Assembly (NCBI GenBank): GCA_041658785.1
Contig: JBAZZL010000003.1
Coordinates: 639 to 64,638, forward strand
Length of the DNA: 64,000 nt
Reading direction: 5' to 3'
Source: Patescibacteria group bacterium
Lineage (GTDB): Bacteria; Patescibacteriota; Patescibacteriia; Magasanikbacterales; UBA922
The notes below the pieces were generated by a model. It did no database searches, was not told the DNA's origin, and was given only the letters and a program-made list of their open reading frames with translations. Below, in pieces: positions 3,277 to 57,833 of this stretch; positions within the stretch are counted from its first letter, which is position 1; each line of letters starts with the position of its first letter. Both the position numbers and the translations under genes were made by a program.

Positions 3277-3305
3277 TTGACAATCATTTTTCCCCCTGTT
3301 ATACT
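3277..3305 (+). promoter_or_regulatory. consensus promoter TTGACA-N17-TATACT (TTTTCCCCCTGT box) for paralog A, leaderless or near-leaderless
   Basis: Exact -35 and -10 hexamers. The ATG lies 9 nt after the -10. Confidence 0.55.
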
Positions 3306-3313
3306 CATTTTAT

Positions 3314-3595
3314 ATGAACCAAACATCAGACCCGACAATCAAAGACGTTATGGAGGTCGTTGAATTCATCCGTGACAATGCCGCGACTAAGGATGACGTC
3401 CAGGCAGTTAGAGCCGAGCTACAAAAAGAAATCCAAGACGCTAAAAATGAAACGATCGGCCATATTGATGGTTTTGTCAAACTGCACAAAGACATGGACA
3501 CTGAAATCGCCGCACTCAAATCATCTTACCAGCGGCACGAAGAGCAAATCAGCCAAATCGTCCGCCACCTCGGCCTCCAATTGTCTAATGGCTGA
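3314..3595 (+). CDS. small coiled-coil protein, paralog A of a DUF1640-like ATKDD(L/I) repeat family
   Basis: 93 aa. The N terminus MNQTSDPTIKDV and the C terminus SQIVRHLGLQLS are shared with the ORFs at 6921 and 7627. Identical promoter and start context. Confidence 0.7.
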   Translation: MNQTSDPTIKDVMEVVEFIRDNAATKDDVQAVRAELQKEIQDAKNETIGHIDGFVKLHKDMDTEIAALKSSYQRHEEQISQIVRHLGLQLSNG

Positions 3596-3640: not shown

Positions 3641-3695
3641 TTTGTAATGAACACAATTATTTTTTTCAATCGATAACTTTCGCAACGAACTTTGG

Positions 3696-3744
3696 GCGGT
3701 AACCCGCACCTCATCCCCTGCCCTTCTCCTAAAAGGAGAAGGGA
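3696..3744 (+). repeat. fragment (left half) of the MITE-like structured element
   Basis: CGGTAACCCGCACCTCATCCCCTGCCC...hairpin matches the copies at 31411 and 43958. Confidence 0.45.
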
Positions 3745-3839
3745 GCAATCCAACGATCTTTTGATTTTCCGATCTTTTGATCTTCAATCACCCCATCACC
3801 CCATCCTCCTCCACAATCCCTGAATTATCAGAAACTTTG

Positions 3840-6886: not shown

Positions 6887-6912
6887 CAAACCAATTTCAC
6901 GCCTGTTATACT
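6883..6912 (+). promoter_or_regulatory. promoter TTGACA-N18-TATACT for paralog B
   Basis: Same TATACTCATTTTATATG start context as at 3300. Confidence 0.5.
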
Positions 6913-6920
6913 CATTTTAT

Positions 6921-7277
6921 ATGAACCAAACATCGGACCCGACAATCAAAGATGTCATGGAGGTCGTAGAATTCATCCGCGATAATGCCGCGACCAAAGA
7001 CGATATTAAAAATTTCGCGACCAAAGATGATCTTAAGAACCTCGCGACCAAGGACGACTTAAAGAACTTCGCGACCAAAGACGATCTGCAAAACTTTGCC
7101 ACCAGGGACGATCTTAGAAATGCTAAAGATGAAATGATCGGCCATATTGATGGTTTCATTAAACTGCACAAGGACATGGACACTGAAATCGCCGCGCTCA
7201 AATCATCTTACCAGCGGCACGAAGATCAAATCAGCCAAATCGTCCGCCACCTCGGTCTCCAATTGTCTGCCGCCTAA
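6921..7277 (+). CDS. small coiled-coil protein, paralog B, with a 5x ATKDDLKNF tandem repeat expansion
   Basis: The N and C termini match paralog A. The repeats read ATKDDIKNFATKDDLKNLATKDDLKNFATKDDLQNFATRDDLRN. Confidence 0.7.
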   Translation: MNQTSDPTIKDVMEVVEFIRDNAATKDDIKNFATKDDLKNLATKDDLKNFATKDDLQNFATRDDLRNAKDEMIGHIDGFIKLHKDMDTEIAALKSSYQRHEDQISQIVRHLGLQLSAA

Positions 7278-7589: not shown

Positions 7590-7619
7590 TTGACAATCAA
7601 TTTTCCCCCTGTTATACTC
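7590..7619 (+). promoter_or_regulatory. promoter TTGACA-N18-TATACT for paralog C
   Basis: Near-identical to the 3277 cassette. Confidence 0.55.
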
Positions 7620-7626
7620 GTTTTAT

Positions 7627-8007
7627 ATGAACCAGACATCAGACCCGACAATCAAAGACGTACTGCAAGAGCTGAAAGAAAATAGAGAAATAATCGAGTT
7701 CATCCGCGACAACGCCGCGACCAAAGATGACATCGCCGACATCCGCAGAGAGATGGCGACCAAAGATGACATCGCCGACATCCGCAGAGAGATGGCGACC
7801 AAAGATGATTTGCGATTGGTGAAGACAGAACTGCGGCAGGAAATTCAGGATGCCAAAAATGAAATGCTTACTCATGTAGATGCTTTCGTGGGCTTGTACC
7901 AAAAACACGAACAAGAACTCGCCGCCGTAGTGGCTCGCGTCAATCGTTTTGAAGAAAAATTAAACGCCGTCATCAAACACCTCGGCCTCCAGCTTGAGAC
8001 CGCGTAA
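7627..8007 (+). CDS. small coiled-coil protein, paralog C, with the repeat ATKDDIADIRREM in three copies (the third partial)
   Basis: 126 aa. Conserved MNQTSDPTIKDV...IKHLGLQL termini with a different repeat array. Confidence 0.7.
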   Translation: MNQTSDPTIKDVLQELKENREIIEFIRDNAATKDDIADIRREMATKDDIADIRREMATKDDLRLVKTELRQEIQDAKNEMLTHVDAFVGLYQKHEQELAAVVARVNRFEEKLNAVIKHLGLQLETA

Positions 8008-8190: not shown

Positions 8191-9320
8191 TACCGACTGC
8201 CTTTCTCTCCACCACCTTGCGGCGGTCAAGAGAAGGCGCACTCGGTACCACATTCTCTGGTGAAAATGTGGAGCGGTCGCGAGGGAGTTTTGACCGAATC
8301 GCTTCAGCCAAAGCTATCAACCTCCACCGCCGTTCCCCGATTTAATCGGAGAAAAAAACCAGATGTGTATCTCACATCGCCGATAGGACTCTCTCCTATT
8401 TTTCATACGGGCAATGCGGGATCAAACACTTGAATTTAATGAACCTATAGTCAGATATATTCCACTCTTGCTCGCAACCGGATTAACAACCGACAAGCGT
8501 TTGTCAATCCAAGTCTATTGAGCAGGGATTATTCCGACAGAACAGGTGGCATGGCTTTTACCCGTCCGAGTGTCGCTCGCGCGGCAGGTGGACAGATATT
8601 TGCTTGTCAGAGGATGTCCGCAGGCATTGGGCAATAAATATTACTTTTCCCCGCCAATGGACACTGTGATCTCTCTCCATGTCACCCCATCTATCGGAAC
8701 AAAAAATCCCTCTTTGGGGAAAGGGGGTTTGATTTCAGATTTCAGATTGCAGATTTATTTCACAAATCAATCTCCAATCTCTTGATCTTTTGATCTTTAG
8801 ATCTTTTGATCTTCAATCGTTCATTTTGCCCTCTCTCCAAGGCAATTTTTGTTATAAGTTGTATTGAACGGTCTCTTTTGCTTTTTGATTTTAACAGAAC
8901 AGTATAACATCATTTGGGGTAATTGTCAAGAGTTGTTTGGAAATTGGAAATTAGTAATTGGTAATTTGTTTTATTTGAGCTAAATTTTGTCATAAAAAAT
9001 ATGTCTATTCTTTACTTGACATATTTATTTGGCTATGTTATACTATGTTTATGATTAGCCAAGAAAATTGTATCTCCATCTTAAATTATTTCATGGGGTT
9101 TCAATGAAAAAAAACGTATATTTGGCTAAAATAACTGTTGTAATTAGTAAATGGTAAACAGTAATTGATAATTGTTCCATTGCCCCATTGTCCTATTGTC
9201 AATTACTAATTACAATTTACAAATTACCCAATCGCCCAATTACCAATTTCTATTTACCATTTACCCTCAAATTAGAACCATCCGTAAATCAGGATTATCC
9301 GTCATCCGTAAGTTAAACCT

Positions 9321-20105: not shown

Positions 20106-20135
20106 CCCGTTTGTCATTCCGGAATGACAAACGGG
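20106..20135. repeat. 30-bp perfect palindrome CCCGTTTGTCATTCC|GGAATGACAAACGGG
   Basis: Read directly. The core TGTCATTCCGGAATGACA recurs at 27237, with a half-copy at 42884. Confidence 0.7.
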
Positions 20136-25559: not shown

Positions 25560-25850
25560 CAAAGGAGGTTCCCCACAAACCACCCGACGCCTGCCCCAAT
25601 TCTGAAACAGATTCAGGGTTGAGGTAGGAGTTTCGCCGGGTGGTTTTGTTGTTGGAGGCGGGGTTTGGGCGGTAATCCGACAACCCTACCTCTGTCTCCT
25701 TCCCTTATGAAAGGAAGGAGAACCTTTTAAGAAAGTTCAACTAAATTCAATTGTTAGCCCCTTTCCATTCATAAGGGAAAGGGGTTGGGGATAGGGTTGT
25801 CGCCAAACACCCACGCACCACATTGACTTTCCCCCCAAAATCAATTATCC
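25560..25850 (+). ncRNA. GC-rich structured non-coding region upstream of tig (candidate ncRNA or cis-regulatory RNA)
   Basis: Long-range stem GAGGTAGG...CCCTACCTC. Two hairpins, CTCCTTCCC-TTATGAAA-GGAAGGAG and CCCCTTTCC-ATTCATAA-GGGAAAGGGG, whose loops are reverse complements of each other. Confidence 0.3.
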
Positions 25851-29671: not shown

Positions 29672-30028
29672 TTAAGCGGCCTCTGACAGAGCTTGTTTTT
29701 TTGTGGAAGTATCATCTCTAGTTTGTCCTGGTAATTTGATTTCTGTGAGAGGTATTTCTTTAAAACCCATTGGGTTGCCATGCAGGCCGCTGGGATTGGT
29801 ACGGGGAGCAAAAGAGTCTGCTTTGATTATTTTTTGATTTAATTTATCAGGATCTTTTGGGACAAGAATGTCTCCAAAAGGAACATTTTTTGATTCCATA
29901 TAAAATAATATTAATCCGTCTCCGTCTCTGTCCGCCGAGTTGGCGGACTGCGCCGGATAGGTTTTTGGTTTAATCCCAATTTTAATATCTATACCATTCG
30001 TGTTTATACGGCCCATTGACGCTAACAT
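29672..30028 (-). CDS. hypothetical small protein
   Basis: ORF only; overlaps the end of ahcY; contains DRDGDG. Confidence 0.25.
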
Positions 30029-31391
30029 TAATATACCCCGCCTGTTCTTTCGTTAATCTCGTCAGTTTAACCCCAATCTTATCCAAATGCAAACGCGCCA
30101 CTTCTTCGTCCAGTTCTTTGGGGAGAGTGGTAACGCCGATCGGATGTTTTTTGGTCCAAAGTTCAATCTGGGCGAGCGTCTGATTGCTGAAACTATTACT
30201 CATCACAAAGCTAGGGTGGCCGGTGGCGCAGCCCAGATTGACGAGCCGGCCCTCGGCCAAGAGATAGATTTCATTGCCATTGGGAAAAATATATTTGTCC
30301 ACCTGCGGTTTGATATTGATTTTTTTAACGCCGTTTAGTTTATTTAGCGGTTCAACTTGAATTTCATTGTCAAAATGTCCGATATTGCAGACAATCGCCT
30401 GATCTTTCATTTTTTCCAGATGTTCAACGCGGATGACGTCTCTGTTTCCGGTGGCGGTGATGTAAATGTCCGCCCGCCCCAGAGTATTTTCAACAGTAGT
30501 AACTTCATAGCCCTCCATCGCCGCCTGCAAAGCGCAGATGGGGTCAATCTCGGTTACAATCACTCGCGCTCCCTGCCCGCGCAGGGCTTGGGCGCAGCCC
30601 TTGCCCACTTCGCCATAGCCGCAGACGACCGCCACTTTGCCGCCGATCATCGCGTCCATGGCGCGGTTCAGCCCGTCCAGTACCGAATGGCGGCAGCCGT
30701 AGATGTTGTCAAATTTTGATTTGGTGACAGAATCGTTGACGTTGATGGCGGGGAATAATAGCTTTCCTTCTTTTGCCAACTGATATAGCCGATGCACGCC
30801 CGTGGTCGTTTCTTCGGATACGCCCTTCACATTTTTTGCCACACCTGTCCAGAGGTTTTGTTTTTTCGCGTAAAGATTTTTTAACGCTTTCATCAACTCT
30901 CTAAAATCTTCTCCTTCGCCCGAATAATCTTTTTTCAAAAGCGCGGGGTTGTTTTCTATTTCCACGCCTTGGTGGATCATGAGCGTCGCGTCGCCGCCAT
31001 CATCAACAATTAAATTCGGCCCTTGCCAATTTCCAAAATCAAGCGCTCTCATCGTGCACCACCAATAATCCGCGAGCGTTTCGCCTTTCCAGGCAAATAC
31101 CGGAATGCCCGTTTTCGCTATCGCCGCCGTGGCATGGTCTTGCGTGGAAAAGATGTTACAACTGGCCCAGCGCACTTTGGCGCCGAGGGCGGCGAGCGTT
31201 TCAATCAAGACCGCGGTCTGAATCGTCATGTGGAGCGAGCCGGTGATTTTCGCGCCTTTCAACGGTTTTGTTTTCGCGTATTTTTTCCTGATCGCCATGA
31301 GGCCGGGCATTTCTTTTTCCGCGATTTCAATTTCTTTGCGGCCGAGGAGGGCGAGGGAGAGGTCGGCGACTTTGTAATCTGTTTTTGGCAT
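29982..31391 (-). CDS. ahcY: adenosylhomocysteinase
   Basis: SAHH signatures; NAD-binding [10 protein letters not shown]. Confidence 0.9.
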
Positions 31392-31410
31392 AGTGCTTAT
31401 GAAAATTAAC

Positions 31411-31683
31411 CTAATTTCTAATACTTTGAATTACGAAACGTAGATTTTCATCATTCCCATTTAAAGGACTCTTCGCAGTGTGAATCGGTCTTCGCGGTAA
31501 TCCGCACCTCATCCCCCTGCCCCTTCTCCTTGAAGGAGAAGGGGGGTTGCCAATTGTCCATCTGGCTTCCCCTCTCCTTTTAGGAGAGTGGCTAGGGGTG
31601 AGGTGCGGGTTACCGCGAAGAGTTTTCGGAACGGTGAGTGACAGTTGTGTGCCGTTTCGTAATTCAAAGTAATTAGAAATTAG
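31411..31683. mobile_element. MITE-like structured repeat element, full copy with ~30-bp terminal inverted repeats
   Basis: TIR CTAATTTCTAATACTTTGAATTACGAAACG at 31411-31440 pairs with CGTTTCGTAATTCAAAGTAATTAGAAATTAG at 31653-31683. A ~150-nt core carries the long stem CTTCGCGGTAAYCCGCACCTCATCCCCC...GGGGTGAGGTGCGGGTTACCGCGAAG and two internal hairpins. A near-identical core lies at 43958. Confidence 0.55.
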
Positions 31684-32030
31684 GTCAATTAGGTTAATTT
31701 AAAACTTCTACATGCAAGAATTATCCTCTGTATACTAAATACCCCACATAAACCGCGTACATCATCACAAACATCACCCCCTGCCAGCGGTCTAATTTGT
31801 GTTAAGAAAATAAAACAGACCTTATTATAGTCCGGTTAGAGGAGAAAGACAAGTTTTTGAGGCAGATTAATTTATGTAATCTAGAATTTACGCGTTTGAA
31901 ATCTGATTCACTTTTTAGGTAAAAGGAGTAACAGACGACCCAAAGGGAGTCTGTCCAACGACCGAATTGAACGCACTCCCCACGGGTCGTGCGTTACTCC
32001 AATTTATAATGAAACGCGTAAGTTCTGTAA

Positions 32031-34775: not shown

Positions 34776-35516
34776 TTATAATGTTATAGTTAAATCATCA
34801 AAAGCCGCCCGGCTGTTCGGAAAAATTTGTTTAGCGATTCTTTCCGCCTTTTTTCTTGACGCGATTGAATCGTATCTGTCCGCTCCAAAGTGGGTCAGGA
34901 ATAGCCGTTTGGCTCCGGCTTTTTTGGCGATCGCCGCCGCTTCCTTCGGATTGGCGTGGCCCCAGACATCGCTTTCGCCCGGCAAAAAAGCGCATTCGTG
35001 AACGAGAATATCCGCGTTTTTGCCAAGAGCGATTGCATTGTCGCATGGGCCGGTGTCGGAACAATAAGAAATAATTTTATTTTCCAGATAAAGTCTGTAT
35101 CCCAAAGTTAAGTCCGCGTGTTTTAGCAATCGGCAATCAAACTTAAGCGGTTTTTTATAACTGCCTTGTTTCAGCCCGATAATCTTTGCTTTATATTTAA
35201 GATTTTTTAAAGCGCCGGTGAAAGGATGATTGATGATAAATTTGAATTTTTGCATTGATTCTTGGGCGAGTAAAATTGTGAGGGGTTGCTTGAAATCAAA
35301 CAGCGGCAGAAGATGCATGCCGTAGATGTGATCCAGGTGCAGATGACTGATAAAAAGGTAAACTGGCTTATCTTTTTTATAATATTTTTTTAATTTATGG
35401 ATGCCAAGACCCGCATCCAGGATGATGTATTTGTCTTTGGTTTCTATCAGAGTGCAAATGGTGTTGCCGATCTTGGTGTCAAACCAGCCGTTGGTGCCGA
35501 GGAAGGTGATTTGCAT
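34776..35516 (-). CDS. MBL-fold metallo-hydrolase
   Basis: HLHLDHIYG metal-binding motif. Confidence 0.75.
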   Translation of the reverse strand: MQITFLGTNGWFDTKIGNTICTLIETKDKYIILDAGLGIHKLKKYYKKDKPVYLFISHLHLDHIYGMHLLPLFDFKQPLTILLAQESMQKFKFIINHPFTGALKNLKYKAKIIGLKQGSYKKPLKFDCRLLKHADLTLGYRLYLENKIISYCSDTGPCDNAIALGKNADILVHECAFLPGESDVWGHANPKEAAAIAKKAGAKRLFLTHFGADRYDSIASRKKAERIAKQIFPNSRAAFDDLTITL

Positions 35517-35520
35517 AGAA

Positions 35521-35612
35521 GTTGTAAGTTGTAAGTTGTAAGTTGTAAGTTGTAAGTTGTAAGTTGTAAGTTGTAAGTTGTAAGTTGTAAGTTGTAAGTT
35601 GTAAAGTTGCGA
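35521..35612. repeat. (TTGTAAG)n tandem heptamer array, ~12 units
   Basis: Read directly. It is the inverted counterpart of 35974-36018. Confidence 0.9.
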
Positions 35613-35613
35613 G

Positions 35614-35973
35614 TTACTTTTGAACCTTCATCCAACCGTATAGCAGGCGGCCGCATTCTTCCAGATTTTTAAATAGGCCATCATATTCTTTGAGAGACAT
35701 GTAATCTAGGTCTTTTGCCAATAGCAAATGATATTTTAATTCTTCCAGCGACGCAAGGGCGATGTTATAAAATCGCAATGAATCACCTACACACTTTCTT
35801 TTGAAACCTTCCGCAATATTTGCTGGAAATGAAATGGCTGCGCGGCACGATTGGTCAACCAATCTAAACCTTTCATCAGAAGGATATTTTTTTGTAACCA
35901 GGTATACTTTTAGGACCATCGCGTGTCCTTTTTGCCAAGCCAATATTTCTTTAAATGTTCTTATCCCTGCCAT
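35614..35973 (-). CDS. four-helix-bundle protein (23S rRNA intervening-sequence protein family)
   Basis: 119 aa. ...ISFPANIAEGFKR... is typical of PF05635. Confidence 0.7.
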   Translation of the reverse strand: MAGIRTFKEILAWQKGHAMVLKVYLVTKKYPSDERFRLVDQSCRAAISFPANIAEGFKRKCVGDSLRFYNIALASLEELKYHLLLAKDLDYMSLKEYDGLFKNLEECGRLLYGWMKVQK

Positions 35974-47130: not shown

Positions 47131-48504
47131 TTATACTGACGTTTCTTGTTGATAAGATGTGGCGATCAGCAAAGCGGGTAAGAGCCAAAATAATATTGCC
47201 AAATCATTTTTTATATATGGACTGTCAACTAAGCCAGTAACAACAATCGCGGTCATACTCGCGAGTAAAAAGATTGAAAGATTAAAAGATTGAAAGCTTG
47301 ACGTATTATCTTTAATCTTACAATCTTTTAATCTTTTAATCTTTAATACCCCAATTATTCCAGTTTTGAAGAACCAGACCATTATTAACAGAAAACCCAC
47401 AAGTCCGGTTAAACCCAAACCCACCCACATCGTTAAGAAAATATTATGCGGATGATGAAAGATTTCAATGCCCTCGCCGTTGACCGCAGTGTGATAGGGA
47501 ATGATTTTTTCTTTATAAGACGCCAGACCGGCGCCGAAGATTGGGTTGTCTTTTAGAAATTGCCAGGTTTCCTGATAAATAGAGAGGCGGATTTGGCCGG
47601 AGCGGTCTTGGAGAGTTAATTCTTTTTTGATGGGATTGTAAGCGGGGAGAAGGGCAAGGGTAAGGAGGCCGGAAGCCAGAAGGATGATGGTGATTAGCCG
47701 CGTTTTTTTATAAAAAAATAATAAGAGCGCGATTCCCGCGGCGAGGCCGGCGAGGCCGCCGGTGGATTTGGCGAAAATAATTGCCAGTGGTGATGAAATT
47801 AGAAATAAGAAACTAGAAACTAGGGTCAGCCAGTTTCCAGTTTCCAGTTTCCAGTTTCTTTTTTTCAACCTCTGAAAAGATTGGATTAGCAAATATAACG
47901 CAATCGGCACAATCGGCGCAAGAAACAATCCTACCGCATTCGGAAATCCATACCACCCAGTAACGCGGAAGGCGTTGCCGTTTTCCCAAAATGCGTAAGG
48001 AACCATGAAACCCGTGAAATGTTGATAGATGGCGAGAAGCGAAGTTGCCAGTCCGGATAGAATGAGAGCAAATAGGATTAAAGATTGAAGATTGAAGATT
48101 AAAGATTTTGTGGTTGATTGTTGATTGTTGATGGTGGTAATTAGGATAATGAAGATTAGAAACGGTTCAATGTAAAACGCTTTCCATTCCCCAGCCGCCG
48201 CTCGGACGTCAACCGAAGTGAATATTGAAGCGGTGGCGGCTACCAGGAAAATGAATGACCCGATGAATAAAATTTTATGTCGTAAAATCTGAAATCTGAA
48301 ATTTGAAATCTGAAATCTTTTGACAATCCAAACGGCGATGATAATCCAAATCATCGCTTCCAGCAGTGTCGTCGGCAACGGTCCAATATTGAAGCGGATT
48401 AAATATGTCGGCAATAGGAGAAATAAAAAAAACAGGCTGAGGCGGAAACGCAACCACGTGATTAAAACGAAGAATAATGAGTAAAGAATAATGAGTAGCG
48501 GCAT
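47131..48504 (-). CDS. O-antigen ligase / polymerase family membrane protein (Wzy_C domain)
   Basis: >10 TM helices; periplasmic loop with ...IFGAGLASY. The gene contains four 7-8-bp tandem-repeat tracts. Confidence 0.65.
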   Translation of the reverse strand: MPLLIILYSLFFVLITWLRFRLSLFFLFLLLPTYLIRFNIGPLPTTLLEAMIWIIIAVWIVKRFQISNFRFQILRHKILFIGSFIFLVAATASIFTSVDVRAAAGEWKAFYIEPFLIFIILITTINNQQSTTKSLIFNLQSLILFALILSGLATSLLAIYQHFTGFMVPYAFWENGNAFRVTGWYGFPNAVGLFLAPIVPIALYLLIQSFQRLKKRNWKLETGNWLTLVSSFLFLISSPLAIIFAKSTGGLAGLAAGIALLLFFYKKTRLITIILLASGLLTLALLPAYNPIKKELTLQDRSGQIRLSIYQETWQFLKDNPIFGAGLASYKEKIIPYHTAVNGEGIEIFHHPHNIFLTMWVGLGLTGLVGFLLIMVWFFKTGIIGVLKIKRLKDCKIKDNTSSFQSFNLSIFLLASMTAIVVTGLVDSPYIKNDLAILFWLLPALLIATSYQQETSV

Positions 48505-57721: not shown

Positions 57722-57800
57722 CCGTCATACATTACTGTGAATTACCTTGAATTACGAAATGGGGGCGGGAATGACAAAAACCGACACTTCGCAATTCAAA
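57722..57800. repeat. reduced copy of the MITE (TIR-like GAATTACGAAA ... TTCGCAATTCAAAG with almost no core)
   Basis: Shares CTGTGAATTACGAAA with the left end of the copy at 43958. Confidence 0.35.
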
Positions 57801-57833
57801 GCATATTAACCAACCAATAGGCTGAAATTTATT

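Follow-up and report, generated by a model that had tools for sequence, protein, structure and literature searches.

A repeated element upstream of ahcY and within the his operon

The stretch of DNA analysed here (the window) comprises 64,000 nucleotides of a Patescibacteria metagenome-assembled genome (MAG) and carries a repeated element that occurs, in its most complete form, upstream of ahcY and, in a shortened form, between hisD and hisC. The full copy is situated in the pfkB-ahcY intergenic region, its neighbours being identified by Pfam as adenosylhomocysteinase (29982-31391) and a PfkB kinase, at a distance of 30 nt upstream from the start codon of ahcY (31391, minus strand). It combines an outer shell resembling a miniature inverted-repeat transposable element (MITE), bounded by terminal inverted repeats (TIRs), with an inner inverted dimer of units that resemble the BoxC motif of Escherichia coli, also named PIT or TM. 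Repeat search and BLAST delimit the following features.

31422-31671, plus strand: full composite copy, MITE-like shell with TM dimer inside
31422-31440, plus strand: left TIR, TACTTTGAATTACGAAACG, 19 nt, 100% complementary to its partner and common to three other copies
31653-31671, minus strand: right TIR, perfect 19-nt partner of 31422-31440
31403-31421, no strand assigned: left half of a flanking palindrome, AAATTAACCTAATTTCTAA; the partner, at 31672-31700, has a 9-nt internal duplication
31489-31621, no strand assigned: inverted dimer of TM (BoxC-like) units whose extended arms measure 27 nt; the GCGGTAAYCCGC mini-hairpin is part of it
31503-31544, minus strand: TM unit of AGAA type, CCCCTTCTCC / GGAGAAGGGG / CAG / GGGGATGAGG; E=0.01 with a covariance model built from E. 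coli sequences only
31569-31606, plus strand: TM unit of AGA type, CCCCTCTCC / GGAGAGTGG / CTA / GGGGTGAGG; one stem mismatch, E=0.0048 with the same model

Within the full copy, a 27-nt stem (31489-31515 with 31595-31621, 93% complementary) encloses two GC-rich hairpins, CCCCTTCTCC-TT-GGAGAAGGGG and CCCCTCTCC-TTTTA-GGAGAG. A 31-nt stem probe has 2 matches in the window, against 0.00 expected by chance. The copies have no apparent coding capacity: they contain only spurious open reading frames (ORFs) of at most 66 aa, without homologues, and a protein database search for further copies with a 55-aa ORF of the core (…PSPLLKGEGK…LLLQGEGAGG) yielded no candidates. A preliminary description had given the TIRs a length of about 30 bp. 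The TIRs proper measure about 19 nt, and the larger figure takes in the flanking palindrome, which is specific to this site and has no further copies in the window by BLAST. This palindrome was probably a pre-existing target, split by the insertion, and would lie outside the family.

Related sequences elsewhere in the window are these.

43956-44165, plus strand: his-operon copy with left TIR, left interior and TM dimer, truncated on the right; fills the hisD-hisC gap
44021-44152, no strand assigned: TM inverted dimer of the his copy, with units at 44035-44076 (minus strand, E=0.01) and 44101-44137 (plus strand, E=1.6e-5)
3688-3744, minus strand: solitary TM monomer with extended arm GGCGGTAACCCGCAC; one arm and one hairpin, 84-90% identity, E=4e-4
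25664-25808, no strand assigned: diverged inverted dimer of TM units, with no MITE shell around it; the trigger-factor gene lies about 115 nt downstream
25685-25720, minus strand: unit of the diverged dimer, CTCCTTCC / GGAAGGAG / ACA / GAGGTAGG
25759-25797, plus strand: unit of the diverged dimer, CCCCTTTCC / GGAAAGGGG / TTG / GGGATAGGG
57743-57804, minus strand: 62-bp short form of the shell, with both termini but lacking a TM dimer; the ftsH start (57834) lies 30 nt downstream

When positions 31400-31700 are compared with the window by BLAST, 31422-31634 aligns with 43956-44165 at 92.5% identity over 213 nt. The four stretches that had been listed as copies (31411-31683, 43958-44160, 3696-3744 and 57722-57800) are real, both on reading the sequence and by BLAST. 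Their list lacked the diverged dimer at 25664-25808, to which we were led by a marginal covariance-model match at 25759-25797 (E=0.048). The short shell copy at 57743-57804 is adjoined by a 10-nt partial duplicate of its terminus (57733-57742).

Identity of the core

BoxC and PIT elements were reportedly the subject of earlier work by Bachellier et al. in the 1990s and by Hoyne et al. in 2000. Holder et al. (2015) describe the same motif as TM or TMECO (PMC4666352). It consists of a C-rich stem, a loop of 3-6 nt, the G-rich complement of the stem, a 3-nt loop and a second G-rich segment that is able to form a purine-motif intrastrand triplex (PMC4666352). E. coli K-12 has 23 occurrences of the motif, all of them between genes, and in five cases two subtypes make up an inverted pair; the strict TMECO pattern is present in 262 proteobacterial genomes, and G/C-rich motifs of the TM class abound in cyanobacteria (PMC4666352). 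No function, mobility gene, or promoter or terminator activity is known for TM motifs (PMC4666352).

Judged by its sequence, the core of the element is an inverted pair of intrastrand-triplex motifs of this long-known class. Eleven TMECO sequences, all from E. coli, were the sole input for a covariance model (R1), which was run over the window and several other loci. In the window it found five units at E values of 1.6e-5 to 0.01, namely 44102-44136 (1.6e-5), 3707-3743 (4e-4), 31570-31605 (4.8e-3), and 31508-31543 and 44040-44075 (both 0.01); the unit at 25759 came next at 0.048, and nothing else in the 64 kb scored better. A second, sequence-agnostic detector asked only for an 8-nt pyrimidine stem, its complement and a mirror as third segment, all three perfect. 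In the window it picked out six of the seven family units and no other sequence, the unit at 31569, with its one stem mismatch, going undetected, and it made 0 matches in 30 Markov-shuffled windows.

Pairs were counted in a hand-parsed table of nine units from this lineage, two from E. coli and two from Pseudanabaena, a MAFFT alignment of eight dimers being out of register for the purpose. The nine lineage units have stems of 8-11 bp with 0-1 mismatch and represent four stem sequences. In each unit the third segment is the mirror of the unit's own purine stem (100%, except in the unit with a mutated second segment), with the second A of the mirrored stem changed to T and, in one unit of the metagenome contig L016, the third A as well. 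The pairs so related are GGAGAGGG with GGGGTGAGG, GGAGAAGGGG with GGGGATGAGG, GGAAAGGGG with GGGATAGGG and GGAAGGAG with GAGGTAGG, and the relation holds in all four stem types (AGA, AGAA, AAA and AAGGA). We considered a direct-repeat model for the third segment; it fails for asymmetric stem types, of which the unit CCCCTTCTCCTTCAAGGAGAAGGGGCAGGGGGATGAGG is an example, and the relation of third segment to stem is therefore that of a mirror. The bulged T in the "long stem" has the same origin, since an arm is the mirror of its own hairpin and not the complement of the opposite arm. We read this mirroring as a constraint of the DNA-triplex type, and not of the RNA-helix type.

The units thus parsed have the layout of the E. 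coli BoxC/PIT/TMECO motif: a pyrimidine segment (S1), a loop of 3-6 and at most 9 nt, the purine complement (S2), a 3-nt loop and a mirror segment (S3) with one A replaced by T. As in E. coli, they are intergenic without exception, stand singly or as inverted pairs of two subtypes, and have no associated mobility gene; each dimer joins two different unit types. The preliminary description had taken the conserved folding as a sign of either a non-autonomous transposon or a mobile structured RNA. The core is neither a fold peculiar to this family nor a mobile structured RNA but a dimer of triplex motifs, found also without the shell, in L016 and on cyanobacterial plasmids.

A MITE-like shell separable from its cargo

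Bacterial MITEs, which are non-autonomous elements with TIRs, have reportedly been reviewed by Delihas in 2008. The shell described here shares many of their properties. Its termini, TACTTTGAATTACGAAAC(G), are found in four copies: the full copy, the his copy (left end only), the short copy at 57743-57804, and a 93-bp copy (L027:20230-20322) found 7 kb outside the window, past its left end, and again lacking a TM dimer. The four are 62-250 bp long, non-coding and contained in about 85 kb; their flanks are unrelated, and their interiors have only a TCATTCCC box in common. Like bacterial MITEs, they have TIRs of about 19 bp and mostly lie near gene starts, would form long hairpins when transcribed, and include a case of one small repeat nested in another. 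The copy at L027:20230-20322 carries as its own cargo a palindrome with 17-bp arms (TGTCATTCCCGTCCGCC-AGCT-GGCGGACGGGAATGACA) and is located upstream of an ATP-cone (NrdR-like) gene.

All four shell copies are found 10-45 nt upstream of a start codon, that of ahcY, hisC, ftsH or the ATP-cone gene, which may reflect a target preference or merely the sites tolerated in a compact genome. Shell copies without a dimer, on one side, and a dimer (25664-25808) and a monomer (3688-3744) without shell termini, on the other, establish that the two modules are separable. What had been taken for one complete element of about 250 bp is hence a real repeat, but a nested composite of two parts.

We favour, at a probability of roughly three in four, the view that this composite of MITE-like shell and BoxC/PIT/TM inverted dimer has been copied as a unit. 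The shell would be a miniature inverted-repeat element moved in trans by a transposase presumed to be encoded elsewhere in the genome. Its cargo would be the TM dimer, whose S3 segments, by mirroring the purine stem, have the arrangement suited to a purine-motif intrastrand DNA triplex, of class II with G*G, A*A and T*A triads. At least one copying event would have involved the whole composite, one copy landing between hisD and hisC; that copy would later have lost its right end, or might never have had one.

Segmental duplication, gene conversion or recombination between pre-existing TM dimers could instead have produced the two large copies. The state of the his copy gives some substance to this idea: it retains the left TIR and lacks the right one, and its homology to the full copy stops not at a terminus but at 44165, 36 nt before the expected start of the right TIR, the sequence beyond being unrelated to the full copy. 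The lack of a consistent target-site duplication (TSD) points the same way, as does the association of TM motifs with local rearrangement in E. coli (PMC4666352). Yet on the left the two large copies become homologous precisely at the terminus that all four shell copies share, short shell forms with both termini are present at unrelated loci, and the hisD-hisC junctions of relatives hold no dimer that might have served as recombination substrate. On balance we consider an origin by duplication or recombination improbable.

Several observations weigh against the composite as we interpret it. No TSD is consistent among the copies: candidates exist at three of them and follow no common rule, the L027 copy being flanked by GAAGTA (6 bp), the truncated his copy by TGATT (5 bp), and the full copy by TA or TAAT. 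The earlier proposal of a non-autonomous transposon is upheld as regards the MITE-like shell, the shared termini, the non-coding nature and the empty his site, but not as regards TSDs. Nor did the roughly 95 kb covered of this genome, including the window and some 20 kb of extra flanks, contain an autonomous insertion sequence (IS) with matching termini; the ends of a nearby rve-type IS in L027 and of a gene resembling those of REP-associated tyrosine transposases (RAYT; REP, repetitive extragenic palindrome), discussed below, are unrelated to those of the shell. The absence of a cognate IS and of an established TSD, together with the one-ended copy, sets the family apart from typical bacterial MITEs. 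The lineage sample consists of four shell copies and seven TM units, since hardly anything from this organism came out of two large DNA scans. Beyond the window it covers about 7.5 kb on the left (L027), with the one new short shell copy, and about 2.7 kb on the right, where nothing new was found.

Other reservations concern the cargo. The strict TMECO pattern (CCCTCNCCC N3-6 GGGNGAGGG N3 GGGNGAGGG) has 0 matches in the window, so that the units, with their stems of 8-10 nt and other A/G patterns, fall in the broader G/C-rich TM class and not in the TMECO subtype. Third segments face outward in the window dimers, creating the long closing stem, whereas they face inward in the pair at the E. 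coli hrpB locus. In E. coli, Holder et al. did not observe a stable triplex in vivo; a further mark of the class, a stable intrastrand triplex of single-stranded DNA in vitro, is assessed there by circular dichroism (CD) or nuclear magnetic resonance (NMR) on oligonucleotides (PMC4666352). Two further differences from TMECO are the lineage-specific arm extension of 17 nt (CGCGGTAAYCCGCAC) carried by each window unit, and the host itself, a Patescibacteria MAG as opposed to the proteobacteria that harbour the strict pattern.

Insertion between hisD and hisC

On the minus strand, Pfam identifies hisG (45304-45909), hisD (44168-45307) and hisC (42872-43945), followed by hisB domains. The hisD stop (44168) is separated from the hisC start (43945) by 222 nt, of which 210 nt belong to the element. 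The closest HisD protein, with 74% identity, comes from a Candidatus Magasanikbacteria MAG with extensive synteny to the window (FtsK, RecA, SpoIID, Wzy, a TrpR-like helix-turn-helix protein and the his genes). In that MAG (L028) hisD and hisC overlap by 4 nt, and in two further relatives (L031 and L032) they are 5 and 6 nt apart. Since the site is empty in all three, the his copy is a lineage-specific insertion; no TM units or TIRs are found in 57 kb of the relatives' loci. A structured spacer of 222 nt, with a predicted folding energy of about -118 kcal/mol, thus occupies a position where the hisD and hisC genes of relatives overlap and are presumably translationally coupled.

The conserved C-terminus of HisD is intact in the window. 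The notion that the last codons and stop of HisD derive from the element was ruled out: homology stops at 44165, and shuffled controls outscore the tail. All assemblies of the same strain contain both large copies. Logan contigs, assembled from short reads, terminate within these copies, and in practice the elements fragment the short-read assemblies of this organism.

Elsewhere in the window, a single 490-aa ORF (39314-40786, minus strand) contains two His_biosynth domains and is an apparent hisA-hisF fusion, shared with the closest relative; in two more distant relatives the genes are separate.

Transcription and folding

Both large copies would be transcribed as part of an mRNA, that of the his operon in one case and probably the ahcY 5' untranslated region in the other, and the dimer would then fold as a very stable hairpin. 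The hisD-hisC spacer, as operon-sense RNA, has a predicted folding energy of -117.8 kcal/mol (z = -10.8), and the ahcY upstream region one of -148.5 kcal/mol (z = -14.5). By consensus scan the element contains neither a T-run terminator nor a sigma-70-like promoter; the sequence that best resembles a promoter for ahcY is upstream of it, at 31852-31824. Only one of 43 long ORFs in the window is preceded by a Shine-Dalgarno-like motif, and the organism appears to start translation without such sites. As the genome is essentially devoid of them, their absence before hisC and ahcY is uninformative.

Folds of such predicted stability invite the hypothesis that the conserved fold is itself the functional unit, a strand-specific structured RNA acting as cis-regulatory leader, processing element or mobile small RNA. 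The position of the copies would suit it: both large and both short shell copies are situated 10-45 nt upstream of a start codon, the two large ones have a single orientation relative to the downstream gene, and the his copy is necessarily co-transcribed with the operon. Other features are hard to reconcile with it. The dimer at 25664-25808, oriented like the others in window coordinates, faces a plus-strand gene and so has the opposite orientation relative to transcription, and neither the hairpin loops nor the spacer between the hairpins is conserved between dimers. At the Rfam gathering score, the whole window yields two tRNAs and the element nothing; relaxed thresholds add, in the element, only sub-threshold matches to generic miRNA-precursor hairpins. 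RNA pairing leaves the mirror relation and the resulting bulge unexplained, and RNA reportedly does not form purine-motif triplexes (PMC4666352). The element contains no promoter-like or terminator-like site, and the PIT elements of E. coli showed neither activity (PMC4666352). We therefore regard a dedicated structured RNA as having little likelihood. Neither of the outcomes that the preliminary description had placed opposite its own proposal, a known riboswitch or leader and a simple segmental duplication, was borne out.

In our analysis the composite element is most likely a tolerated passenger, or mildly modulatory, and not a dedicated riboregulator. Any effect on his or ahcY expression would at most be REP-like, consisting of a barrier to 3'-exonucleases and an uncoupling of hisD and hisC translation. 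REP sequences and bacterial interspersed mosaic elements (BIMEs) in operons of E. coli and Pseudomonas offer a parallel: like the his copy they are palindromic, GC-rich relative to the host and placed between operon genes, and protection of mRNA 3' ends is plausible for both. They differ from it in that the element described here has a triplex-type mirror repeat, no GTAG head and no tie to the local RAYT-like gene.

A RAYT-like gene near the his operon

This last gene, of the Y1 transposase type, raises the possibility that the element is itself of REP/BIME type and was mobilised from 1.9 kb away (46101-46799). The gene is directly upstream of hisG, matches PF01797 and NF047646 (REP-associated tyrosine transposase, 62 bits), and is absent from the corresponding position in the syntenic relative. 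The NF047646 score, however, is below the NCBIfam cut-off of 80, the flanks of the gene contain no TM or TIR sequence, and Y1/HUH elements do not use TIRs. What appears to be the gene's own REP, a GTAG-headed palindrome (GTAGAGGCGCATTG/CAATGCGCCTCTAC), is unrelated to the element and occurs in the window only inside the gene. Mobilisation by this transposase is very unlikely, more so than the other two alternatives.

The gene has a peculiarity of its own. Its reading frame on the minus strand contains, in frame, a perfect 40-bp GTAG-headed palindrome at 46394-46433 (GTTCGTGTAGAGGCGCATTG/CAATGCGCCTCTACACGAAC), with an extra half copy at 46439-46463, and translation of the sequence gives repeats of VRVEAHCNAPLH. 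A REP seems to have been inserted here into the gene of its own transposase.

TM dimers in other organisms

A distant-mode BLAST with positions 31507-31603 of the core against plasmids retrieved repeats that carry no annotation. They are found on plasmids of cyanobacteria, in six records of Pseudanabaena and in records of Leptolyngbya, Synechocystis and Kovacikia, and in one record of Hymenobacter. The cyanobacterial sequences are 72-77% identical to the window core over aligned segments of about 82-113 nt, a similarity that hints at horizontal acquisition. These too are outward-facing dimers, of the form CCCTCAYCCCC-[CTTCTCC hairpin, CCCCTTCTCCC]-spacer-[CTCTCC hairpin, CCCCTCTCCC]-CTA-GGGGTGAGGG. 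Unlike those of the window they have no 17-nt arm extension, the TIR shell is absent from the four loci read (L023-L026), and some copies lie under annotated ORFs.

One plasmid dimer, from Pseudanabaena sp. ABRG5-3 (L024:275-440), sits inside an unrelated 15-nt inverted repeat of its own (CTCACCTTACGCAGA / TCTGCGTAAGGTGAG). Given this arrangement, TIR shells may enclose TM dimers in further phyla as well.

A diverged TM dimer is also present in a metagenome contig from another organism (L016, Ga0265292_1002256), the sole real copy among ten loci returned by a metagenome scan. A scan of genome contigs for the exact 21-nt stem pattern gave only three chance matches, in coding sequences of unrelated phyla, and neither a viral scan nor phage records matched the element. 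The first hairpin loop of the L016 dimer has an insertion of about 30 nt, and at the contig end (L016:1-115) the dimer adjoins another palindromic element, TAATCTACCCCGCTTTAGCGGGGGT … ACCCCCGCTAAAGCGGGGTAGATTA.

The element does not constitute a new class; it represents the TM/BoxC-like motif in a genome of the candidate phyla radiation, together with a new small family of MITEs. Its points of interest are the clean three-way covariation of the segments and the documented insertion in the his operon. BoxC/PIT/TM motifs are abundant in enterobacteria and cyanobacteria and have neither an accepted function nor a known means of spread. To this question the present data contribute TM motifs in a reduced Patescibacteria genome, asymmetric stems that separate mirror from direct repeat, and one dimer inside a TIR shell that was copied into the his operon at a site empty in relatives. 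It is tempting to go further and suppose that BoxC-like motifs are under direct selection for three-stranded DNA structure and, in this lineage, travel as cargo of TIR transposons. We consider this doubtful. Were it true, motifs whose spread has gone without explanation since the 1990s would have in the shell their first identifiable vehicle, and the organism would offer a minimal genome for studying what the motifs do.

Other repeats in the window

Long tandem arrays of heptamers (GGAAAYT, AAGTTGT, GATCTTT and others) are found between genes and at gene ends, at the following positions.

59560-60119: heptamer array
35505-35616: heptamer array
47773-47860: heptamer array
2389-2460: heptamer array
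3746-3789: heptamer array
8767-8818: heptamer array

Assemblies deposited in ENA break at about 20110-20134 and at about 47776, the latter within a heptamer array. Small genes or segments are duplicated with 88-94% identity near the left end of the window (3282-3396 / 6889-7003 / 7595-7709, 3440-3586 / 7122-7268, and 6989-7123). They hold in-frame tandem repeats of 27 nt and 39 nt (CGCGACCAAAGACGAT…), a pattern that points to a small family of proteins containing repeats.

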